Source of the DNA: Octopus vulgaris
Lineage: Eukaryota
NCBI GenBank assembly: GCA_951406725.2
Contig: OX597833.1
Location: 32,674,001-32,738,000 of the forward strand
DNA length: 64,000 nucleotides
Direction of reading: 5' to 3'
The translations under genes were made by a program, and so were the position numbers. Positions 29,874-50,697 of the stretch are shown here, piece after piece; the first letter of the stretch is position 1, and each line of letters starts with the position of its first letter. Under the pieces are notes generated by a model. The model was not told the DNA's origin. It saw only the letters and a program-made list of their open reading frames with translations, and ran no database searches.

Positions 29874-29875
<2 letters not shown>

Positions 29876-30268
29876 CGCAGGAGTGGCTGTGTGGTAAGTA
29901 GCTTGCTAACCAACCACATGGTTCCGGGTTCAGTCCCACTGCGTGACATCTTGGGCAAGTGTCTTCTGCTATAGCCCCGGGCCGAATAATGCCTTGTGAG
30001 TGGATTTGGTAGACGGAAACTGAAAGAAGCCTGTCGTATATATGTATGTGTGCGTGTGTTTGTGTGTCTGTGTTTGTCCCCCTAGCATTGCTTGACAACC
30101 GATGCGGGTGTGTTTACGTCCCCGTCACTTAACGGTTCGGCAAAAGAGACTGATAGAATAAGTACTGGGCTTACAAGGAATAAGTCCCGGGGTCGATTTG
30201 CTCGACTAAAGGCGGTGCTCCAGCATGGCCGCAGTCAAATGACTGAAACAAGTAAAAGAGTAAAAGAG
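29874..30268 (+). mobile_element. Full-length tRNA-derived SINE family A (uninterrupted)
   Basis: A box TGGCTGTGTGG, B box GGTTCAGTCCC, internal (TG)n, (TAAAAGAG)n tail. Confidence 0.92.
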
Positions 30269-30310
30269 TATATATATATATATATATATATATTTTATTT
30301 ATTTTTAAAA

Positions 30311-33300
30311 TTTTTATCTAGTTTCAGCTCACAAGCTGTGGCTATGCTGGGGCACCGCCATTTGGTGTTGCTACATGATTTTACTTCACGAATGCTTTTT
30401 AGCAATTGCCATTTGGTGCATGAGAGTGTTCGATGCAGCTGCCCTCATCTGCACCTCCTGCCGTGAAGTTGGTTCACCTGGGACACCTGACAGGAAGAGA
30501 TCCAGTTTTAATTTAAATACATCTGCATCCACCCCATGCAGGTCTCTTAGGTTTTTTGGGAGGATATTGAAGAGTTGTGGGCCTCGGAAGCCCAGGCTAT
30601 CACAGTATCTTGTCCTACATCTTGATGGCAAATTTGGAGTCCTTGGCACTATGCAGTGGCGCCCAGTTCTGACATTGGTGTAACTCTCGATGCCAAAGTT
30701 TGGGACAAGTCCTTCTAGGATCTTCCAGATGTATATTATGGCATATCTTTCTCGCCTACGCTCTAAGGAATAGAGTCTTAATCTCTTGAGTCTTTCCCAA
30801 TAGCTTATATGCAGCACAGAGGCTATCTTCTTCGTGTAGCTTCGTTGGATCGCCTCAAGTTCTGTGATTAACTTGACATTCTTTTCAGCCCACTTGTATA
30901 TTTTGTCCAGCTCACATTGCAGGTGCTTAGTGTCTTCAGGGTTCTGTATTGCCTGTGAAACTTTTGTATCATCTGCATAACTTGTGATCGTGGCTCTTTG
31001 CGTGGCTGAGGGCATGTCGGAGAGGGCCATTATGAACAGTAGTGGTCCCAAAACAGTGCCTTGCGGAACACCGCTCACTATTTGCGTGTTAATGGAAGTG
31101 GCCCCATTGGCTACTACCACATGATTTCTATCCTTCAGAAGGTCATGAAGCCATTCTCCCAATTTTCCAACTATGCCAAGATCACGCAGTTTGTGACATA
31201 TCATTCCATGATCGACTTTATCAAAGGCTTTTGCAAAGTCGAGATATATCACTTCCACATTTGAGTGGTTGAGCAGTTGTTTCAGCACCAGGTCATAGTG
31301 TTGTAGTAGCTGAGTTAAGCAGCTTCTTCCTGGTCGGAAACCATGTTGGGTATCAGGCAGCAAGTCACTTTCTTCAAGGAAGGTGATTAGTTTCCTTCTG
31401 ACTATTCGTTCCATGACCTTGCTGATGTGTGAGGTCAGAGAGATAGGTCTGTAGTTCTTGGCCTCCGCTCTGCTACCTCCTTTATGAATAGGGCATATTT
31501 TACCTTCCTTCAGTTTTCTTGGAAGTTTGCCAGTTGTAAGGAATCTCTGAAAGAGGAACTGCATTGGTCTTGCTAGGACTCTCTTACATACTTTTAGAAG
31601 GATTGCTGGGAATCCATCGGGGCCAGTAGCTGAGTTTGTTTTCATTTCATCAATAGCCTTTCTCTGATTTTATATCTGCAGTGGTAAAGAAGTCAGCTGG
31701 ATTGCTGACTTGAAAATGCCCTAGGGGTGGAGTGAAAATACTCTTGAATTGCTCATTTAATATTTCACTTACCCTCGTTGGATTTCCTGTGAGTGTGCCG
31801 TCCTTTTCAATGAGTGGCCCTATCCTACAGTGCACTGTATCTTTTTCTTTGGCATACCTGTAGAAAGCTCTGGTGTTAGATTTTATGTTGTCTATAGCCC
31901 AGGCTTCTTTGTCTGCTCTTTCTTTTCATGGGAGAGTTGCAGACATTTTTCAATTTCCAACAGTTTTATTTTCAGGCGGGACTTTTCACTGCTTTCAATT
32001 TGTTTGTTTAGGCGATTTGAAACTTTTTTACGCCGTCTCATTAAAACTTTCCTCTCTCTGGGGATTTTGCTCTTGTGTACAGTGGCCTTTCTCTCTGGGA
32101 CACATTTGTAGCATATGGCTTGCATCACAGACTTGAATTGTTGAAGTTTCATGTCGATGTCTGGCGAGGAGAGACATTCAGGCCAGTTTTGTTTGAGGAT
32201 CTCTTTCTCAATTTGTTTCCAGTTTGCCTTATGGAAGTTCAAGCTGGAAATATTCTGAGAGTTTCTTGTAGGCTGCATGTCCATGCTTTCCTTTGGCCCG
32301 TACATGGTCAGCTCTACCATGTTGTGATCCTAGAGTAGTGTCGGTGTCAGTTTCACATTATGGATGAGATCCATATTATTTGTGAAGCAGAGATCCAGTA
32401 TGTTACATGCCCTGGTTGGTTGGAATATTACTTGATCCATGTACAGAGTGTTGATGAGGTTCAGGAGGGACCTCACCTGTCCTCGCTCGCATCGTGTCAT
32501 TCCTGGGAGAGAAAGGCCCTCGAGCCATCTGACATTGGGTAGATTGAAGTCTCCCATAAGAAGTACACTTATGTGTTGTTCTAATGTGACTAGAACTTCT
32601 TCTATTTTTATAAGGCAGTCTTCAAACTTGCCTACATGGCTTGGGGCTTCTGGAGGGCGATATGTAGCACACACAACTACATCAAGTTGCCTTATATGTA
32701 CAATTAGTGTGTCACACACCGAGTTTGAGTATGACAAAAGGACCTGGGGTGTGAGGTCCTCACGGATGTACATAGCAACTCCTCCATGACTCTTTTCTTT
32801 TCTGTCGGTCCGTAGTGCAACATACTGTGGTATGTGTATTTCCGCATCTGCTATGTCCGGTTTCAGGTGTGTTTCCGTAAGTGCTATGCATAAGGCTTGA
32901 TTGCATGCAACAAAGTCTCTCAAGAACGGGATTTTTGTCCTGTTACTAAGTGTTAGCATTCCTCTGATGTTCAGTAGGAGCATCGAGGTGATGTGTATGC
33001 TGTTGCCGGCGGTGTCCACCTTGGGTCTATTTGCTGTGGCGGTCTTGTGTATTGTGGATAGTCCCATCTGCGAGTTTGAGTTTGATGGAGCCAGGACAGC
33101 TGCTGAACAAGAATCTTTTTTGTGCCATGCACAAAAAAGATTCTTGTTCAGCAGCTGCCCTTTCAATAACATGTTGGCGGTTTGTAACACGCACCACATC
33201 TGCGTACCTCCGTTTTGGGGCAGGTGGTGTGTGGTCCATTCCTTTTCCTTTTGGTAGTTTGTTTATGACCTATGTCATGTTTATGTGGCAGGGTCTTTGA

Positions 33301-33945
33301 TGTGCAAAACGGCAGCCTGCACCTTCCTCTCCATGCCAGCAGACACCGTTCAGGTAGAATTTACACATTCGTGTGCACTGTCTGTTTTTATCCTTTTTGG
33401 ATAGTCAGGTTTGCTTCTATCCTTGGCTGTTTCATCTTTTGGTTTTGTTTGAGTTTTAGCTTTTCCTTCTTTGGCTGTTTCATCTTTTGTTTTTCTTTTA
33501 GTTTTTCCTCCGTTTATTTCTTTTTTGGCCCTTTCATCTCCATGGTTTAGACTTTTGGTGTTGGTAGGAGTACTTACACTTGGGTTTACTTCCCGGGCAG
33601 GTTTCTCACTTGAATCTTCTTTGTTGTTGTCCTGGGTGTCTACCAAGTGGGGGTGACATCTTTCATCAGCACTCGCGCCTCCATCCTTGCCATCTTTACT
33701 TTGTTCATTGTCAAAGATGGCATCAAGCGTGCCAATGTAAGATCTTATGAGTGCATAGGAGCGTATAAACTCCTGCTTCTTTCGCTCTATCTGTGCTATC
33801 GTCATTTTATATCCACTGCTCTTCAGCGCATCTGTAATTATGTTGTTCGGATTATCTCCGTCGGCGCATCGCCAGGCTCTCAGAAACAACGCCAATTCGT
33901 TACTTCTCCAGGTTCTGAACATTTTGGATATTTTATTTATTTATT
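30311..33945 (-). mobile_element. CR1/L2-group LINE (APE-RT), near full length, disrupted
   Basis: APE ORF 32330-33199 (LLNIRG, LTETHL, GDFNLP, LDL). RT ORF 30386-31645 (NYRPISL, YLDFAKAFD, GVPQGTVLGP, YADD, SLERRR). ORF1 lies upstream. The RT C-terminus has an internal deletion at WAEKN|VKLI. Confidence 0.92.
33239..33922 (-). pseudogene. LINE ORF1 with Myb/SANT-like N-terminus and CCCH zinc finger (frameshifted)
   Basis: ORF 33350-33922. A shifted frame near 33370-33300 reads CKFYLNGVCWHGEEGAGCRFAH. Confidence 0.6.
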
Positions 33946-34759
33946 TATCTAATTATATTTAAAATTCAATAGTGCGATAGATGGTAGAGAAGAAATAGAG
34001 AAAGAAAGTGTCTATGTATTTAGAGAGATTGAGAGCTGAGAGAAGATAAGAAGAGAGTAAGAGAAGAAAGTATATATATATATACAGTGAGAGAGAGAGA
34101 AAGATGGATAGATAACACTCGGCGTTTTGAGAGAGTATTCTCCACCGAGACAAATCGCAGCCTACCGGCAAATACACGTGAGGTATATTCTAAGCACATG
34201 TGGTTGGCTGCCACCGGAAGGTTCAATATTGTCGTTAAAGGCGTGAAATTGCGTTTCAAACTCGGTGACTTTCTCCGTCTGTTTTCCTTTTAGTTGTTCA
34301 TTTATGTTTTAACTTTATTTGGGACGCTAAGTACCCTTTGATTTCTTTAGATTAAGTGACTGGATATATTCGTACGACTTCTCTTGTTCTCTCTCTCTTT
34401 CTCCTTCCTCTCTGCTCTCCGTGTGTCTCACTCTGCCTTCTACCACTTTCTCCCACTTGCTACTAGCACGTAGCCCGTGTTCCTCGTGTTTACTTTTTCT
34501 CTTTCTCCTCCCTTTTCGCGTTGACCGTTGAAACAACCGGTCGTATTTCCTGTGGTTTCCCTCTTCAGCCTGTTTCGCTGTCTGTTGTGCTTCTGTTTCT
34601 AATCCTTTAGGGTTTTCTTCTGAGTGTTATCCACACTTTCGTCTCAGCCCGGCGCTAAGGCTATAATGTTTATTGTATAGCTAAGGCTGTATTGTTTATT
34701 TATTTTGTACTTGTCCTTCGGCCGTCCAATAACGAATTATGTTTTTTCATGTTTGCATA

Positions 34760-35148
34760 GTCTTTTACTCTTTTACTTGTTTCAGTCATTTGACTGCGGC
34801 CATGCTGGAGCACCGCCTTTAGTCGAGCAAATCGACCCCAGGACTTATTCTTTGTAAGCCCAGTACTTATTCTATCGGTCTCTTTTGCCGAACCGCTAAG
34901 TGACGGGGACGTAAACACACCAGTATCGGTTGTCAAGCAATGCTAGGGGGACAAACACAGACACACAAACATATACACACACATACATATATATATATAC
35001 GTATATACGACAGGCTTCTTCCAGTTTCCGTCTACCAAATCCACTCACGGGGCATCGGTCGGCCCGGAGCTATAGCAGAAGACACTTGCTCAAGATGCTA
35101 CGCAGTGGGACTGAACCCGGAACCATGTGGTTGGTTAGCAAGCTACTT
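34760..35148 (-). mobile_element. SINE family A body; its 5' tip is displaced to 40806-40838
   Basis: Matches 29874-30268 up to AGCAAGCTACTT. The remaining head (..TTACCACACTACCACTCCTGCGC) follows the LINE. Confidence 0.92.
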
Positions 35149-35348
35149 TATTTCATAAAAGATTCGCCATTAAGGCGTTACATAGAGGGGACATACAAAT
35201 GCAGACAAACATATAGGGTGTAGTAGCTTAAAACGTTTTGATTAGAATAACATATATATAATATTTACAATATAAAGTTTTTAAAATGTTGTATTATACA
35301 GCAGGGCACGGATCCCTGCCATCCGGGTACTTCTTGATCCGGCCACAC

Positions 35349-38300
35349 TTACCTGGTGTCAGATATACTCAGCTTGCACGCTACAGACTTCCATTTTTTC
35401 GCAAACATATCTCGTGACAGATACCTCTTCTCCAGCCTGATCTTACTACCGTGGTGGTAATTGAAAAAGTTAACCAACCCCTGGCCGGATACAAAGGTAC
35501 CTGTCACTATACCTTTCGTACGCGTCTTCCATACTGTTTCTTTCAGTATGGCTATTACGCAGGAAAAAGAAGCCTTCCTTTCCCTGCTGAGGAAAGGAGG
35601 TGGCACAATCTCAATGATAGATTCCGCTGATAGCTGTACTCTTCCATTCACTGACAACAGTTGTTCGGCGAAAGCAATCAGTCCCGATAACTCCGGACAC
35701 TCCACGAATGCGTGCAAGACGGTTTCCCTATCCCGCTCACATCGCAGACATGTCGGCGAGACGGCACTTCCGTGCCTTGACAGCTTGTCGCGAACAGGTA
35801 ACGCCGCACGGAAACACTGCCAGGCCAGGGATTTCTGGTAATTATCCAGGTACCCCGGCCCGAACGTTCTCCGGAACAGGTTGGTCAACTGATTTTCATC
35901 GTAGCCCAGGGTCTCCCCCAAGGTGTCTTCGGACTTAACCTCCACTAACCCGCTATAGAAATCCGCGGTGGAACTCCTGTTGCCGGCATTGCCCGCCCGA
36001 GAGAGTAGCTGAAGTGCCTGACGGCACTCCAATTGCCAGTCCCCCAGCCTAGGTCTCTGCTTGATCCAATTACCAATGTCCGTTAAGGACGTTAATCGCG
36101 GAAAGTAGAACCGAACGTGCGGTGACCACACCTGTTCTCCATCCAAGTAAAGTCAGAGGTGCCTCAACCTTAACGCGACCTTTCGCATCTTCAGCCAAGC
36201 CCACCCTTTAGCGGTTTCTGGCAGCAGACAGAGCGATTTACAAGTGGCTTCCCTCCTTTCCACAAAAAGTGGAAAAGGATTCTCTCCAACTTGTTCAGCC
36301 ACAAATCGGGGCAAGGCACCACGGTCAGGGGGTAGGTGACTACTGATGCCATGAACATCTGCACCACCTCCGCCCTCCCTAGCAGGGATAACGCCCGTCC
36401 AGACCAGGTCTGGGTTAGAGCGGTCACCTTGCCGGCCACCTCACTCCAATTTTTCTCTATCTGGAGGTCTGGCCCGAACCAGACTCCGAGCAGCTTAACA
36501 GGACCTTCCGTCCAACGCCCCACGACGTTATTGGACGGCATCGGCTTGCCCCTCCAGGTGCCGAGTTGCAAACCGACCGACTTGTCCTTGTTCACCTTTG
36601 CTCCTGCTACCGCTTCGTAGCTTTTGATGGCCTCTTCCACCACTGGAAGCTGGTCCTCATCTGCCACGATGATGGAGATGTCATCCGCGTACGCCGTAGC
36701 TCCTCTTCCACACCATAGATCATGCGGTGCGCCCCCTATTGCCTCCAACTTCCGTAGCAAAGGCTCAAGAGCCAACACATATTGAAGCGGGGACAGGGGA
36801 CACCCCTGACGGACTGAACGCTCGATCCTGAACGGCTTCGAAAGGGAGCCGTTCACCTTGACCACAGACTCGATGTCGCTATACAAAGCAGCGATCCAAC
36901 CTCGAAAGGTCGGGCCCAGGCCAGCCTCCCCGAGGACCGCCGCCAAGTACCGATGGTCGACCCTATCAAATGCCTTAGAATGGTCTAAATGTACCAGTGC
37001 CCCCCCCCCCCTGAGCCAGAAAGCTACCCGACCCTGTCTAAGGAGTAGCGTATAAGGTGGAGATTGTCGTGTATCGTCCTGCCCGGGATAGCGCACGTTT
37101 GCGCTTCTCCGACAAGTTTATCCACGACCCGCGCCAACCTTTTCGCCAGCACCTTGGCCAAAATCTTTAACTCTGTGTTTAGCAGAGTTATGGGCCTGAA
37201 GTTGCCTATCTCGTCCCCCTTGCTCGGGTCCTTCCTGATCAACGTTACCACACCCCGGCTCGCAGACTTGGGAATTTTCCATTCCTGCTGCCAGTTGGCG
37301 AAGACGCTAGCCAGCAGGTGCCCGAACAAGTCTGGCATACTTTTGAAAAACTCATAGGGCAGACCATCGAGACCCGGCAACTTCTCCCCGGGGCACTCGC
37401 CCAACGCCTCGATTACTTCCTCGGCTGTGATTGGCCCCTCACAGCACTCAGCCTCTCGTGCCGAGAGACGCGGGCCACCAGAAAGGAAGCCCCTAAAGGC
37501 CTCACCATGATCCAGCGTCCCGCACCTCCCGAACAACTCGGCGATGTGCTTGTAAAGTGCCTCACACATCTCGTCCCGTTCCTTCACCGTGCATCCGTTT
37601 CCGTCAACAAGAGACCTAATTGTGGCATTGTTGCCACGCTGGGTTTCTATCGTACGGGCCCATCCGGCAACATTAATTCCCTCGCGGTCCAATGCTCGTA
37701 CTTTAGCCCGAACTCTACACCCCTAATGTTTGGTTTTGAGGTGACGGTCTAAAGCCGTTCTCGTCGCCAAAATGTGAGATGCAGAGCCCAACCTCAACGC
37801 CTCCTCTAACTTCTTAGCTAATTGCCCTTCTACTCTAGCCTTATCTAGTCTTAGTTGCTTACTAAACCTAATTGACTCGAATCGAATGGCTCTTTTCAGG
37901 GCGAACCACCACCGGTTATTAACCACGGCTCCGGTTAACGCCCTCTGCACTAACTCCTTAATCCAACTGCGGTATGCCTCACAAGTCAAAATAGACTGGT
38001 TCAGCTTCCAGTAGCCGTTTCCTATCTTTAGTGTGCTACCTATGTCCAGTCTACACTTGACCATTCTATGGTCCGTATAGGGCACCTGGACGAGCTGTGG
38101 ACAACTAAAAGTAGACTTATCTCTAGTTCTTATCACTACCCTGTCTAGATAAGACTTGAACCTTCCGTCGCCACTCATCCAGGTCCAATCTGGGACGTTC
38201 GGATGGTCAAGTCTGTAACGATCTGCCAGCTGAAATCGCTTAAGCAGGTCCACGAGACGTGAGTTCACTTTCCTATGGATCGAGCCAACACTATCGATGT

Positions 38301-38744
38301 GTACGTCAACGATAGCATTAAAGTCTCCTAATACTACTAAAGTCTTCGACGTCACGAGAAAGTTCTCTAGGCGCCGATAAAAATCAGTTTGGAAGCCTCT
38401 AGCACAAGGTGCATAGAGTCCGATCAACCTGAAGGCCTTACTGCTGTATGTCACATCAAGGACGACCAGCCCACCTTCGGGGTCCACATAGACTGTACTT
38501 GTCTGCAGAGCCAAGCTTTTACGGATCAGTACCACTACGCCCCTCGTTCTCCGGTCTGACCGGGAGATATGATTTTCTCGTAGCCATTCAGGAGAGGCGA
38601 GAAGGTTTGTAGACTGTCCAGCTTGGTCTCTGTAGCAACCATCACGTGCATATCATGTGATCTGAGATCGTCGAGGAAACACGCCTGCTTCCACTTCGAA
38701 CTCAGACCACGCACATTCAAACAACCAAGGTTAAGAGACGCCAT
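35349..38744 (-). pseudogene. Tx1-like ORF2 (APE-RT-CCHC), frameshifted
   Basis: LNVRGL, ETKL, LGDFN, SYLDR, WKLN, PGLDGLP, FRPITLLN, LDHSKAFD, VRQGCPLSP, YADD and CLRC..HAFVEC. Confidence 0.92.
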
Positions 38745-38761
38745 TACAAAGAGTAAAGGTT

Positions 38762-40011
38762 CTACTTACATTTCTTTGGAGATGTGGGGGGTGACCTCAC
38801 CACACGTGGATCCGTCCCCTTCTTCTCCTCTCTCTTCGCGTAACCCGGTAAATCCAAAATCTTCCATATGGCCTTCTGGTTTCTGTCCTTTAGTTCCCGG
38901 TATAGGGATTCTTCTACCCTTGCACATCTGTTCTTCAAATCATGGTGTTGGATGTACAGCATAGTCTTTTTGTGTTTTACAATGGCGTCATTTGTATACG
39001 TGTCTGTCGTATCGTATTCCACCAACATAGCATTTTTGTTTTCTTCCGGGACAGATGGGCAGGGTTTCTTTTTTGGTGTCTGTGGTGCGTTTTTTTCTGT
39101 TTTGTGTGGGGGATATGGGTGGGGAAGGTTTACGGGAACGTTTCTTTCCCACTAGTGTGAATCCACCCTCTGAAACCTCCATGGTGTTATGTGAGGGGTT
39201 GGTGGCAGTTTCTTTCGGCGCAGTGTTTTCCGTTGGTGCCGAGTCTTCCAAGAGGGCTGGGTCATTTTGTTTATGTAGGGACTTGTGCGTGCCGGGGCTG
39301 GGTTTTTCTGTGCTTTGTTTGGGGACCAGCACCTCGACAACGGGGGTGGGAGTTTTTGAGTTTGTGGGGGTTTGTGTGTTTGCGGGCCTGGTGTTTGCAA
39401 CAACTTTTTTTTTCTTCACAGTCAGCTCGAATGTGGCCCTTTTTTCCGCATTGGTAACAGGTGGGCTTACGGCCTTCCACCTGTTCCCTAAGGGCCACAT
39501 TCTCCCCAACAAGTACTCTCTCTGGTAGGGCCTGAATGTCCTCCTGTTTGCCTTGTATTAAAACCGTTATGTTCCGCCCTAACCACATCTGTGGGGCGGA
39601 ACTTGTGGTCTGTAATATGTTAATCCGGTCCGTCCTGTTAAACAACAGGCCGGCCACCACTTCTTCCGGGTCTACTGTGGGTGGGATTTCGTTAATCCTT
39701 AGACGGGATGTTCGTCGCCCCCTGTACGTTGGCAAAAGTACCACTTCCTTGGTTTTCAGGGGACACACGGCGTGCCCGCGAGCTACCTTTTCCTCTGAGA
39801 ATTGAACCTCAACGGATCCGTATGCCCGTCCCCTCGAGATATACACTATATCCCTCCATATCGGGGCCAGGCATTTTTCAATGGTTTCCTTCCCGAAGTG
39901 CTTAAACCTTTTGTCTTGTGGGCAGAAGGTTTTAAACACCACGGTCCTCTTTTCCGTTTCTAGCACGGTGGAGGAAGGCGATATCACAACATCACCTCCC
40001 TCCTCCTTCAT
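38762..40011 (-). pseudogene. Tx1-like ORF1 (RRM-like plus CCHC), frameshifted
   Basis: ORF 39271-40011 with EGRKPTCYQCGKKGHIRADC. Continues after the A-run at ~39410 into the 38988 and 38762 frames. Confidence 0.85.
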
Positions 40012-41067
40012 TCTTTAAAAATATCCATGCAGCCTGTCTGCAGAGATATCTATGTTTTCGGTTGCTACTTCTGCAACTGCCGAAAATTTTTTGGCGCAAT
40101 TGCCAACATCAACATTGCTCTCTTCAAGAGCAAATTTTTCATGTGTTATTTCAACCGACATGGTTGAAAAGTAATTGGTTTCCCACAAAACTGGGAGACC
40201 TTTCAAAAAAAGAAATTTTCCTCTCACAGAGGACAAAAGTAATTAATTTTTTAAATGCTCGCAGTCCTAGGTTCAAATCCCACCCCCGCTGGGGGGTGAG
40301 ACGTAGCAACAAAGTCTACGACGATTTGAAATTATTTTTCGCCACAACGAAATCCCCAAAAAGGGAAACCTATATTTTTTCCAAAACACGACGACAACAG
40401 TTCAAATCTCGCCCGTGCTACTGGCGTATGTCACAATAGAGCATACAATGGCTAAAATTTAATTTTTCTATAACAACAATTTGCTATCCCAAAAACGGGA
40501 AGCCTATAATATTTTTTTTCCCCTCTTAATAAGGATAACAGTTCAAATGCCACCCCCGCCGGGGGTGGGGCACGGCAATAAAGCCTACAACGGCTTTAAC
40601 AAGTTCAACAATATTAATAAATTCAATATTAATTACTTCAGTCTTACAACAATTACTTTTTCCCGTCACCGGGAAGAAAGCACAAAAATTCACAGAGTTC
40701 ACAAAAATATTCAACGACAAACGTTCAACAGCAGAAAAATTATCCACGTGCGATAACACGTGTGACTCACCGCCAAAAAAGCACGTCCGACTTCGACGAA
40801 GGTTAAGCAAGCTACTTACCACACTACCACTCCTGCGCATGATCATTTTTTAGTTGCATGTCTATCCATTTGTTGTTTGTTCATCCTTGTTATGTTTCGG
40901 GCCTATTACCCAATATCTTCTTTTGTTGCTGGTACCACCTCAAGAAAACAATATTATCGTTAAAGGGGCGAAACTGCGCTTGACCTCCGGCCGATAACTG
41001 ATGTGAACGATGAGAATTTAGTGACTTTTGTGCCTGTTTTCCGTTTGGTCTTGCACTTATTATATTC

Positions 41068-41448
41068 TTTTATTCTTTTGTTTCAGTCATTTGACTGTGG
41101 CCATGCTGGAGCACCGCCTTTAGACGAACAAATCGACCTCAGGATTTATTCTTTGTAAGCCTAGTATTTATTCTATCGGTCTCTTTTCTCGAACTGCTAG
41201 CTTACGGGGACGTAAACACAACAACATCTGTTGTCAAGCGATGGTGGGGGAACAAACACAGACACACAAACATAACCACACACACACACACATACGGCCA
41301 TACACATACAACGGCTTCTTTCAGTGTCCGTCTACCAAATCCACTCACAAGGTTTTGATCTGCCGGAGACTATAGTAGGAGACGTTTACCCAAGGTGCCA
41401 CGTAGAGGGGTTGAACCTGGAACCATATGGTTAGTAAGCAAGCTACTT
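41068..41448 (-). mobile_element. SINE family A body; its 5' tip is displaced to 43568-43598
   Basis: Ends GTAAGCAAGCTACTT. The head resumes at 43568 with GTAAGCAAGCTACTTACCACACAGCCAC. Confidence 0.9.
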
Positions 41449-43567
41449 TATTTCAAAAAATTTTGCCATAAAGGCATGATACAGAGTAGCTTGCGGGCTG
41501 GATAGAAACATTGATGAGATGAATGATGAAATAAAATGATATAAATGGGAGAAGACAAAAAATGCCCGCCGATTTTTTATTTTCTAAAACATTATCTTTT
41601 ACACAAAAAACAAACCGAGGTATTGAACCTCTTACTTCCGTTTTATAATTATTGGACTTGATAGTCCATTTACAAATTAAAACATTATTATTTTTTTACA
41701 CAAAAAACAAAACGAAGTATTGAACCTCTTACTTCCGTTTTTCAATTTTTGGACTTAATAGTCCATTTACAAATTGAAATGCTGAGCCTCTTACACACTT
41801 AAACATTATAACACTGAGGCTTTTCAACCTCTTGTCAATTTTCCTCCTTAACGTCGTTTGTGCCCATATACTCCGCCATTACACACGCCTCGTTTAAAAC
41901 CAATGCGGGCTCCGGGTCGGCGTCGCCTGGCCACAAGCGATATTCCTCTTTGAGTCCCTGCAGCCTACGCATCACGGGCAATGTTATGGCCTCCACAGCT
42001 ATCTGCGGAGGCATTCAGGTTCCCGTGTGAAAGTCAAATGTACTCTCATATAGTGTTTTTCCACCACCTTTTCCACCTCTCCACCTCTGTAGAAGAAGAC
42101 CAATTATTTGTCTTCCTCCGGGGTCGATGTAGTCAATTCTACAGTTGGCAGCACAATTCCCGCCAACGGTGTCTCTTCCTTTACCGATGAGGTTTCAGGA
42201 CATTCCAGTGCTATGTCACCGACTGTTGGCAATGTCCTGTTTTTCTTCCTGTTCCTCACTTTTTTCTCCTCAACTAGGGGAGGGTGCGTCTCCTCCGTAA
42301 CCAAGAGAATCGCCTCCTCTCCCTTCCCTCTTCCGTAGGATCCAACGGTGAGCACTCATTATTGCTCACCTTCTTCCTCTTGCGGCCCTTCTTTGAGGAG
42401 TCCTCCGCCTCCTCGGTCGCCTTCGTTCCTTCTTCTACAGAAGTCTCTATCAACTGCTCCAGGATTTTGCTTTGTTCCTGAGGACAGTTTTTCTTTATAT
42501 GGCCAGGCTCCAGGCACCGATGACACCTGGTGGGGCGACCCTCAAGAATTACCGGGTACCTGCACCCGGCCATCCTCGTAAAATGTGGAAAAACCAGATT
42601 ATCGGCTGATTAGGTCCACAGGGTCAAAACTGCTTTCGACCCTACCCAATCAGCCGCAGGTAGAATTTTGACATTTAAGAGCTTGGCTCTGCTGCCACCC
42701 AGACCCCGACGGATAGTGTCTTCTATCCATTCGGACTCTATTCTGGGTGGCAGCCCACACACCCAAGCTCTTGTCAACTTCCTCCCATCATATGTGGGAA
42801 GAAACAGAATTTTCTCCCCTTCCAAGAGATGGCTCGCAAAATCTCGAACCTCCCCATGGGTGTCAAACAGCAACTACACCATTGCATATTTGACACCCCT
42901 TGCAATAAACTTAATAGTTGGCAGATATTCTGCCAACTCCTTTTCAATGTCCGCCTGAGAGAATACAGTGATGGTGTCAATCTCTCATTAAAGTCTTTTT
43001 CCCCACTGCTTGTGGGCCACAATTTGCCACTCCAATACAATTTTTTTTGTTGCCATGCTTGCAAAAGAAAAATAAAGAAAAATGTTCAACACAAAATCCA
43101 AAACGTTCCAAATAAAAGGTCGAATAAAAACACAAAAAATAAGAGAAGGACAGAGCAGAGAAAGAGAACGAAAGGAAGACAGTTCAATTCACGACAACAC
43201 AATTCCGCCACTCGTGTAAGCCACAAGAAAACATATACTCCAGTTCACGGTCGCAGCACACAAAAATTCCTCCACGAATTCATAAATTTTCCAAATTTTT
43301 GTATCGAGACACGCCTACCAAAACAACAATTCTCACAGCTGAGTCACTCGGCGCGACCGCAGCAGACAAATGTCTAGGACCCAGTGAGGATTTCTTATTC
43401 GAGAAAAAAACAATATCAAAAAAATAATAATTCTCCACCGAATCCCTAAAAAGACAGATGTTTACCTTGCAGTCGCGCCTTCAATGGTTCTTTAATTCAA
43501 GACGGCTTCCAAGCACGTCTTGACAGTGTTCACTCTCGTAAGTGACTGACAAACTCACGCATGTGTG
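41449..43567 (-). mobile_element. ORF1-only Tx1-related non-autonomous LINE (HAL1-like)
   Basis: 15-bp TSD. ORF1 fragments FLPTYDGRK..GLPP and EGRPTRCHRCLEPGHIKKNC. No APE/RT. 3' end similar to that of the 35149 element. Confidence 0.82.
41586..41780. repeat. Two ~95-bp tandem units in the 3'UTR of the ORF1-only element
   Basis: TTTACACAAAAAACAAA..GTATTGAACCTCTTACTTCCGTTTT..ATAGTCCATTTACAAATT occurs twice. Confidence 0.85.
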
Positions 43568-43636
43568 GTAAGCAAGCTACTTACCACACAGCCACACCTT
43601 TGTTTTTTGAACTTATACATACATATATATATATAT

Positions 43637-44800: not shown

Positions 44801-45229
44801 TAATTATGATTAGTGTGGAATGAATAAAATTGGTTGTAGAGCTTGCTAATTCATAAGAGCAGCTAATAAAGCAGAAAAGGAGGAAAAGAGAAAGGGTGAA
44901 ACTAAACAAAGAGAAGGGATGAAAGGAAATAAAGAGAAATCAATACTTCCTGCAATCCAGTATTTATAGCGACAGCAGCAATTCTTCAATCACTGGTTTG
45001 CTATATCAGTAGTGGCTGACTTTGTCTTAGCATGCACTTGCTAGTAGATACTTTCTACTGACGAAGCTCGAGAATCAGATATACGTAGTTTTCAAAACTA
45101 GTACCTCTGCAGGACGATTCGTACCATTATACTTCTATTAGAGAAAGTTACTTGATGTGAATATAACAGATTGTTATTGTAAGCGCGCGGACACGGACAC
45201 ACATACACACACTCATGTGTCTATGTATA

Positions 45230-45453
45230 TACTCTCTTTTACTCTTTTATTTGTTTCAGTCATTTGACTGCGACCATGCTGGAGCACCGCCTTTAATCGA
45301 ACAACTTGACCCCGGGACTTATTCTTTGTAAGCCCAGTACTTATTCTATTGGCTATAGTAGAAATCACTTGCCCAAGGTGCTACGCAGTGGGACTGAACC
45401 CGGAACCATGTGGTTGGTTAGCAAGCTTCTTACCACACAGCCACTCCTGCGCC
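45230..45453 (-). mobile_element. SINE family A, internally deleted, intact head
   Basis: Tail joined to head. Shows the empty target site GCAAGCTTCTTACCACACAGCC. Confidence 0.85.
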
Positions 45454-50171: not shown

Positions 50172-50281
50172 TGGTGACATTTTTTCTCAGTATTCAATAT
50201 CTGTACACCACATCTAACACTATATATATATGGTGTTAGATGTGGTGTACAGACATTGAATATTGAGAAAAAAGGTCACCA
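50172..50281. repeat. Short foldback (~50 bp arms around (TA)n)
   Basis: TGGTGACATTTTTTCTCAGTATTCAATATCTGTACACCACATCTAACAC and its near-exact reverse complement. Confidence 0.9.
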
Positions 50282-50287
50282 TATATA

Positions 50288-50695
50288 TTCTCTTTTACTC
50301 TTTTATTTGTTTCAGTCATTTGACTGTGGCCATGCCAGAGCACCGCCTTTAGTCGAGCAAATCGATCCCAGGACTTATTCTTTGTAATGCTAGTACTTAT
50401 TCTATCGGTCTCTTTTACCGAAGCGCTAAGTTACGGGGACGTAAACATACTAGCATCCGTTGCCAAGCGATGTTGGGGAACACAAAACCGACATACAAAC
50501 ATATACACACACATACATATATAAGTATATATATATATATACGATGGGGTTCTTTCAGTTTCCGTCTACCAAATCCCCTCAAAATGCTTTGGTCAGCCTG
50601 AGGCTATAGTAGAAGACACTTGCCCAAGGTGCCACGCAGTGTGACTATACTCGGAACCATGTGGTTGGTAAGCAAGCTACTTACCACACCACCAG
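50288..50695 (-). mobile_element. SINE family A, uninterrupted
   Basis: Nearly full match to the family. Empty target GGTAAGCAAGCTACTTACCACAC. Confidence 0.88.
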
Positions 50696-50697
50696 TC

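Follow-up and report, generated by a model that had tools for sequence, protein, structure and literature searches.

What brings two unlike retroelements to the same nucleotide of two separate copies of one short interspersed element (SINE)? The question arises from a 64,000-nucleotide stretch of the Octopus vulgaris genome, called the window below (assembly GCA_951406725.2, contig OX597833.1, C20:32674001-32738000), in which two insertions interrupt the tRNA-derived head of such a SINE; an earlier note, made from the letters of this DNA, had ascribed them to long interspersed elements (LINEs) of the Tx1 clade that target it. Tx1 families targeting other transposons, microsatellites, and genes for small nuclear RNA (snRNA) are known (PMC4494074). 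In the whole 2.80-Gb assembly of 227 contigs, we found sequence-specific targeting of one nucleotide, genome-wide, and the lineage is well supported as a real and widespread case of target-specific, Tx1-like retrotransposition accompanied by passengers that carry only open reading frame (ORF) 1.

Two insertions in the window

Each element is on the minus strand, in the orientation of the SINE that it splits, and the two have a common boundary, GTGTGGT/AAGTAG, between SINE bases 22 and 23; the coordinates, orientation, and identical nucleotide given in the earlier note were right. Element 1 (35149-40805) is a full-length, decayed Tx1-like LINE with a 5' untranslated region (UTR), ORF1, ORF2, and a 3' UTR that ends in GAAATA without poly(A). 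On one side of it stands the 3' part of SINE copy 1 (bases 23 to end; 34757-35148, minus), which holds the B box and is 91% identical over 392 nucleotides (nt) to the intact copy at 29874 by blastn, and on the other the 5' head with the A box (40818-40838; with its duplication, 40806-40838, minus). The ORF2 remnant (35352-38765, minus) encodes an apurinic-type (APE) endonuclease, a reverse transcriptase (RT), and a zf-RVT domain (PF03372, PF00078, PF13966) in four frame pieces with two in-frame stops, and by tblastn it is 92-97% identical to an unbroken 1140-amino-acid (aa) copy elsewhere, L182; the ORF1 remnant (38765-40182, minus), with a zinc knuckle (PF00098), was traced in three frame pieces by tblastn against the unbroken copy L185.

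Element 2 (41449-43567, minus) has the same GAAATA end and is a 2.1-kb, nonautonomous element with ORF1 only, resembling the half-L1 (HAL1) elements known from mammals (PMC5753468). It separates the 3' part of SINE copy 2 (41061-41448, minus; 81% identical to the intact copy by blastn) from its 5' head (43583-43599; with the duplication, 43568-43599, minus). Its ORF1 remnant (41856-43077, minus) contains stops and frameshifts and matches at 49-62% identity the ORF1 of L196, which is 420 aa long and unbroken and belongs to a related family with ORF1 only, and the search for ORF2 in element 2 gave no match (best E 0.76). Of the "two Tx1 LINEs" first proposed, element 1 thus stands as Tx1-like, and element 2 is not a complete LINE.

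Exact target site duplications (TSDs) measure 12 bp for element 1 (40806-40817 and 35137-35148) and 15 bp for element 2 (43568-43582 and 41434-41448), as had been claimed; if one indel is allowed for element 1 and one mismatch for element 2, the match by eye reaches 16 and 17 bp, respectively, a size typical of most full-length copies. The independence of the two insertions was likewise borne out. Blastn between the elements returned one 17-nt chance match (E 0.12), their ORF1 fragments are 33-38% identical, the SINE bodies are 82.5% identical, and the outer flanks are unrelated; a segmental duplication as the source of both insertions was ruled out by the dissimilarity of the elements, the divergence of the SINE bodies, and the unrelated flanks.

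Genome-wide site specificity

To see past the window, 3' ends were searched with element sequence alone, and 40 matches were scored for each element, from 110 candidates for element 1 and 1,274 for element 2; 3' flanks were examined for the best 30 of each 40, the window copy among them. All 29 other copies of the element 1 family end at the SINE site, as do 27 of the 29 other copies of the element 2 family. The 30 element 1 flanks, own copy included, comprise 24 SINE bodies, 5 other elements, and 1 second SINE head. A search with the ORF2 C terminus, which avoids selection on the 3' UTR, gave 139 matches, of which 40 were fetched across the identity range: the loci with 70-93% identity end at the SINE site in 28/28 cases, and the other 12, at 65% identity, belong to another family. 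A Tx1 family has been called target specific when more than 20% of its copies are flanked by one repeat type (PMC4494074), a level that 29/29, 27/29, and 28/28 all exceed. The earlier note had proposed tabulating the bases that follow the 3' ends genome-wide; nearly all of those examined run into the SINE site and not into random sequence.

The 5' flanks (best 30 of 41 matches per element, own copies included) agree. For the element 1 family they are the SINE head in 20 cases, a tandem neighbor in 5, a partial site in 3, another sequence in 1, and not alignable in 1, and for the element 2 family the SINE head in 28 and a tandem neighbor in 2. Copies truncated at the 5' end, from 136 to 1,497 nt long, are joined directly to the SINE head with duplications of 0-16 bp, which argues for targeting and against a composite element; a head was present within 1.5 kb at 16/30 element 1 loci. 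Most full-length copies have a 14-17-bp duplication, and at L014 a locus-specific variant is duplicated on both sides of the insertion. No poly(A) tract was seen at any junction examined. Contigs from public runs under four other organism labels (1-2 contigs per run) also show the element 1 end continuing into the identical site.

Exact junctions number 1,096 at the newer form of the site and 207 at an older AAGAAG...TTCCC variant, with none for reversed controls. Set against 61,686 empty sites, the 1,096 filled sites mean that about 2% of SINE heads are occupied, a rough ratio, since empty sites were counted as exact 29-mers and junctions with patterns of another length, tandem ones being counted too. 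This low occupancy points to a safe harbor more than to a SINE killer. The earlier portrayal of the lineage as a hyperparasite with the SINE as its safe harbor is therefore borne out as to the high-copy landing pad and overstated as to inactivation of the SINE population, on which the effect looks small. Judging from promoter anatomy, the split copies themselves would lose transcription by RNA polymerase III (Pol III).

In some full-length copies (window 40806-40817; L199, L313, L341, and L189), the 5' TSD copy differs from the 3' copy by a recurring extra T, which suggests that the 5' end of the element RNA carries target-like bases derived from the donor locus.

The target SINE

Three uninterrupted copies in the window display the empty site, as the earlier note had said of copies at 29874, 45230, and 50288: one at 29874-30270 (plus), one at 45222-45453 (minus), which is internally deleted and whose head, at 45420, has the AAGAAG site variant, and one at 50281-50696 (minus). 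Within three mismatches, a 19-mer of the SINE has 5 matches in the window, three of them these uninterrupted heads, and none in 100 shuffles. In the first copy, the A box (SINE 11-21) and B box (54-64) are each one mismatch from the Pol III consensus; the site lies just 3' of the A box, so that insertion parts the two boxes, again as proposed. Allowing for variants raises the genome-wide number of empty sites to 68,385. The SINE is tRNA derived: it resembles tRNA, its A and B boxes are spaced as in tRNA, and its copy number is high. Among the few isotypes sampled, its head scores best with the host tRNA-Lys(TTT), a score equaled by 1/300 shuffles; ARAGORN and Rfam did not call the SINE a tRNA, Rfam giving nothing meaningful, and a tRNA-Gly pattern search for the origin of the head gave 0 matches and was uninformative. 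Octopus SINE families named OK, OR1, and OR2 were reportedly described by Ohshima and Okada in 1994.

Several further observations concern the SINE. It directly follows the head of a second SINE family at L085 and L094, and (TA)n or ATA precedes 64/110 SINE heads. The idea that the SINE carries a LINE tail and lands in itself gained no support for this SINE: a nested head was found in 1/110 heads and a SINE tail upstream at 0/30 junction loci. A GT-rich stretch of 23-28 nt in the LINE 3' UTR (window 35185-35215; L008:1592-1623) resembles the SINE middle and has very high depth in public runs; this match exceeds the shuffle maximum in 1/5 tails and is possibly due to chance. Target positions 4 and 14 appear more conserved in filled than in empty sites; 30 of the filled loci were chosen by exact pattern, and hence we do not count this as evidence. 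At L156, at least 7 tRNA-Cys-like genes cluster within 3 kb.

ORF1-only passengers and arrays

Element 2 represents a type that has amplified as its own family: it is HAL1-like, with ORF1 only, homologous to the ORF1 of its partner LINE. There are several such families, with full copies of about 1.9-2.3 kb that have both ends present and unbroken ORF1s of about 415 aa, which are 50-62% identical to one another and 27-30% identical to the element 1 ORF1 (E about 1e-19). No match to ORF2 appeared at L187-L196, 10 loci that hold arrays or full-length copies of ORF1-only elements. Element 2 does not encode the ORF2 of an autonomous LINE, nor is it HAL1 proper, which derives from mammalian L1, its partner being a Tx1-like lineage. 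When the tails of the first 30 junction loci on contig C1 were clustered, 18 grouped with element 2, 6 with element 1, and 6 stood singly. Arrays run head to tail and consist of 2-kb units parted by the duplicated site, with at least 8 units in one SINE (C1:223.69-223.71 Mb). Unbroken ORF2s of 1140-1150 aa also exist, and on the autonomous side a younger family has many unbroken ORF2 frames.

A terminal stem-loop is common, in its form, to the whole lineage: CGCC-N5-GGCG in element 1 (35165-35177, minus) and TGCC-N5-GGCA in element 2 (41464-41476, minus). Among 60 tails, the arms are TGCC/GGCA in 30, GGCC/GGCC in 5, GGCT/AGCC in 3, and of three single types, with none detected in 19; types that vary and remain paired indicate that both arms change together. 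Older LINE families lie in older SINEs: divergence of the flanking SINEs is 0.035 in the young family (n = 12), 0.045 in the element 1 family (n = 26), and 0.106 in that of element 2 (n = 38), and incidental empty copies (n = 65) stand at 0.078. Loci of the young family lie in an AAC variant of the SINE in 11/12 cases, versus 50 of the first 100 empty sites listed (binomial p 0.003).

Some internal features of the two elements were noted in passing. The 5' UTR of element 1 (window 40270, 40400, and 40540, plus strand) contains short repeated units, two 53-nt copies being 79% alike; its antisense strand has GGTTCAAATCC, which resembles a B box, at 40270, and a T-run situated about 25 nt inside the 5' end would halt Pol III transcription that enters from the SINE head. 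The 3' UTR of element 2 (window 41585-41779) has a duplicated 97-nt unit, present in about 13 copies in L039.

Relationships and origin

The element 1 lineage belongs to the L1 group of APE LINEs, as PF03372, PF00078, and PF13966 all lie above cutoff in L182 and as, among RTs of solved structure, the element 1 ORF2 scores 226 bits with the ORF2 protein (ORF2p) of L1 versus 80 bits with R2. It scores higher still with metagenome relatives inserted in host RNA genes, at 389-421 bits with three U2-type ORFs and 354 bits with a 5S type, compared with the 226 bits for human L1, which makes a Tx1 placement likely on sequence scores. PF00098, the zinc knuckle, is above cutoff in the ORF1 of both element 1 and L185, upstream of ORF2, and we take such an ORF1 to be a Tx1 mark. 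The Tx1 affinity first claimed gains from these scores; the RT-region tree, which has 44 rows, leaves out P0004 because its overlap was short, is rooted at the midpoint, and includes no row for mammalian L1, gives the clade no firm place among the U2- and 5S-inserted relatives. Protein search and cluster look-up returned no relative named Tx1. Relatives from a metagenome scan are 24-43% identical, and Rfam, run on 20 of the 80, showed four that touch U2 snRNA and one that touches 5S rRNA. L238 interrupts U2 and has a 16-bp duplication, as in the Keno arrangement, L231, L233, and L241 are also in U2, and L239 is in 5S rRNA. By eye, about 14 of 19 aligned columns are alike between the U2 site of L238 and the SINE site, a likeness noticed after the fact.

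Closer relatives lie in the octopus itself. The SINE lineage is sister to a family that targets (CT)n at 100/100 support, and a family targeting (ATT)n joins at 80/89, with an Argonauta protein and two unnamed proteins outside; the Argonauta hians protein is 60% identical to the unbroken ORF2. A (CT)n flank occurs in 12/12 loci of the first family (L351-L362), which has an unbroken 1138-aa ORF2, is Kibi-like in target, and also ends in GAAATA, and an (ATT)n flank occurs in 30/30 of the second (the best 30 out of 126 matches, with many lying in common arrays). Three sister families in one genome, with ORF2s 61-67% identical, thus have as targets a SINE head, (CT)n, and (ATT)n. To judge from this branching, a clade that targets microsatellites probably gave rise to the specificity for the SINE by switching its target.

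The (ATT)n family is very young (L201-L230, L311, L321, and L322; C50, C47, and C4:93.8 Mb), with many unbroken 1145-aa ORF2 frames, and it forms head-to-tail arrays with a period of about 5.87 kb and at least 9 units on C50. In the window itself, a second decayed APE-type LINE, with ORF1-like and endonuclease frames judged by motif alone, lies directly left of the two insertions (32330-33940, minus).

A tail motif complementary to the target

Near the 3' end of each element lies a short motif that is the reverse complement of the target. In element 1 it is AAGCTACT (35222-35229, minus), matching target AGTAGCTT, and in element 2 it is GCAAGCTACT (41485-41494, minus), matching target AGTAGCTTGC. 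Over the last 130 nt of 123 junctions, one false row included, the longest tail match to the bottom strand averages 7.8 nt, compared with 5.3 nt in shuffles and 4.9 nt for the top strand. Most ORF2-bearing tails have the motif about 72 nt before their end, and ORF1-only tails have it about 37 nt before theirs.

The motif changes with the site. Among 30 old-site and 30 new-site loci, selected by junction alone, old-site tails have AGCTTC in 16, AGCTAC in 1, and neither in 13, and new-site tails have AGCTAC in 19, AGCTTC in 0, and neither in 11; in both tail types, the base that differs in the motif is complementary to the one that differs in the target. Predicted folds pair the motif with a read-through extension in 6/6 tails tried. 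From this covariation, the motif likely helps insertion.

A probable mechanism of insertion and alternatives

How is the single nucleotide chosen? We consider it probable, from the comparisons above, that Tx1-like LINEs and ORF1-only passengers come to occupy one nucleotide of the SINE head through an endonuclease of the LINE that likely selects the site, aided by pairing of a read-through RNA. The APE endonuclease would nick the bottom strand at TT/AC, a place uncertain by 1-2 nt because of an A run. At the junction, the AATA that ends the element and the AA of the target form AATAAA, which may serve as the poly(A) signal. Cleavage downstream of such a signal leaves read-through bases, and the RNA would carry about 15 nt of SINE. 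By pairing with the nicked strand, as is proposed for R1Bm, this extension would set the point where reverse transcription begins and would so account for there being one junction and no poly(A); R1Bm needs downstream target sequence, and its target-like RNA has been proposed to anneal to the nicked strand (PMC7265360). The tail motif might keep the extension folded as a hairpin, or else pair with the top strand once this is displaced, in an accessory role and not as the sole guide. A second nick near +16 would make the duplication and rebuild the site, so that arrays could grow, and the ORF1-only families may borrow ORF2p through the shared stem-loop. The SINE would serve as an abundant, harmless landing pad.

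Several points weigh against this account. We infer all six steps of the mechanism from sequence. Two element 2 copies, L032 and L047 (2/29), are off site. The exact 6-mer is lacking in 13/30 old-site and 11/30 new-site tails, and one ORF1-only type (L365, L372, L383, and L317) seemingly has no motif and uses the identical site, which argues that the motif is not required. The Fisher p of 2e-9 for the covariation overstates independence, because the counted copies are related; there are about two independent switches, and tail exchange could make them one. The folds pair by construction once a complementary extension is added. In one copy each, the (CT)n and (ATT)n sisters show no motif that would pair with the microsatellite which they target. 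Which way the target switched follows by parsimony only, with moderate support for the (ATT)n branch and with the cephalopod-like proteins P0001-P0003 as outgroup.

A bolder version holds that the LINE lineage tracks SINE evolution by RNA, a complementary 3' UTR motif being needed for efficient insertion and having been retuned in both the autonomous and the ORF1-only branch when the SINE changed. We advance this tentatively and rather doubt it; were it true, SINE subfamily turnover and LINE tails would co-evolve, and the site would be re-aimable through the motif and read-through sequence.

The alternatives differ in how much they ask of RNA. The motif, at 7-10 nt, might be an RNA guide that pairs with the top strand and chooses the site together with a loosely specific endonuclease, SINE and LINE tail chasing one another. 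Its conservation at two spacings, in tails otherwise without detectable DNA similarity, its switch with the SINE variant, and the concentration of the youngest autonomous family in the AAC variant (11/12) would all fit, but motif-less tails use the identical site, 7-10 nt alone cannot specify a site in 2.8 Gb, and the sister families target microsatellites without such a motif; endonuclease-determined targeting is moreover the reported rule for the group (PMC4494074). We regard such a guide as unlikely. Somewhat less probable again is targeting by protein only, without RNA-target pairing, in which the motif binds protein, is structural, or is a relic of target DNA, and in which the covariation reflects the shared subfamily age of LINE and SINE. 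Age alone does predict old LINE tails in old SINE variants and young in young, and the motif is dispensable in some families; however, age explains neither why the changed motif base is complementary to the changed target base in two tail types nor the asymmetry between bottom and top strands.

It is very improbable that the true target is a host tRNA gene with the SINE as mere spill-over. The SINE head is tRNA-like in its A and B boxes and its tRNA-Lys(TTT) score, and tRNA genes are the targets of other element classes (PMC4640811, PMC8869645), but the target sequence was in none of the host tRNAs sampled (30 loci, some isotypes only), the junction loci continue into SINE or a tandem unit in 30/30 and 30/30 cases, though these were selected by SINE-type letters, and sets selected without the flank show only SINE sites. 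Scarcely credible is a composite, either one LINE-in-SINE unit copied whole or a SINE body that is part of the LINE 3' end: a SINE does follow nearly every 3' end, but 5'-truncated copies of many lengths abut the SINE head, the flanking SINEs are of differing variants, tandem units lack a SINE body, and L014 has its own duplicated variant, and the truncated copies rule this out by the test used for SINEU-3 (PMC4494074).

Comparison with known systems and implications

Targeting of a transposon has precedents among Tx1 APE LINEs, namely Tx1L in Tx1D of Xenopus and the crocodilian Tx1-Mar, Tx1-8_Crp, Tx1-4_AMi, and Tx1-9_AMi, each of which prefers another transposon (PMC4494074). They share with the octopus lineage tandem insertions around a TSD of about 16 bp and nonautonomous passengers (SINEU) that use the same target (PMC4494074). 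As described there, however, their targets are DNA transposons or long terminal repeat elements, Tx1-Mar using two regions (PMC4494074), whereas here one nucleotide in a SINE Pol III promoter is used, the passengers have ORF1 only, and a target-complementary tail motif covaries with the site. The microsatellite-specific Tx1 families, Kibi in (TC)n, Koshi in (TTC)n, and crocodilian families in (TTCC)n/(TTTC)n (PMC4494074), are matched in target by the (CT)n and (ATT)n sisters; the studied lineage differs in using a nonrepetitive 20-nt site. Keno and the 5S-targeting Tx1 type have counterparts in L238 and L239, but identity with the octopus lineage is only about 30%, and their target is a host RNA gene, not a mobile SINE. 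We take Mutsu to be the name of the 5S-targeting type.

HAL1 is likewise nonautonomous with only an ORF1 protein (PMC5753468), but the octopus passengers derive from a Tx1-like lineage in an invertebrate, are site-specific, form arrays, and end without poly(A). R1Bm and SART1Bm are likewise site-specific APE LINEs, whose target-like RNA, at or near the 3' end, has been proposed to base-pair with the nicked strand; they differ in belonging to the R1 clade and in having host rDNA or telomeres as targets, and their 3' UTR motifs are in top-strand sense (PMC7265360), whereas the motif here is in bottom-strand sense, and its pairing partner would be the read-through extension or the top strand. Dada DNA transposons insert at or near the A box of tRNA-type promoters, and NeSL-1_TV, LIN15, and LIN25 lie in tRNA genes; unlike the octopus lineage, Dada uses a DDE transposase and NeSL-1_TV a restriction-like endonuclease, in real tRNA genes and not a SINE (PMC8869645, PMC4640811). 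In the literature searched, mainly as listings and the openings of abstracts, no LINE with specificity for a SINE head came to light, although Repbase, subscription papers, and the SINEU supplements could already list the target. The Octopus vulgaris repeat annotation of 2026 gives 13 recently active L1-Tx1 families, in a main text without the words "target," "nested," or "site-specific" (PMC13282606).

These findings add a SINE Pol III head to the targets of sequence-specific LINEs. For annotation, nested and tandem insertions fragment SINEs and can be miscalled as satellites. With ORF1-only families whose ORF1 is unbroken, the HAL1 strategy reaches past mammalian L1. In a tail motif that covaries with its site, nature offers a compensatory experiment on the pairing of RNA and target when LINEs insert. 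It is a lasting question how the specificity of APE endonucleases changes, and the natural trio of sister endonucleases in the octopus makes it directly testable.

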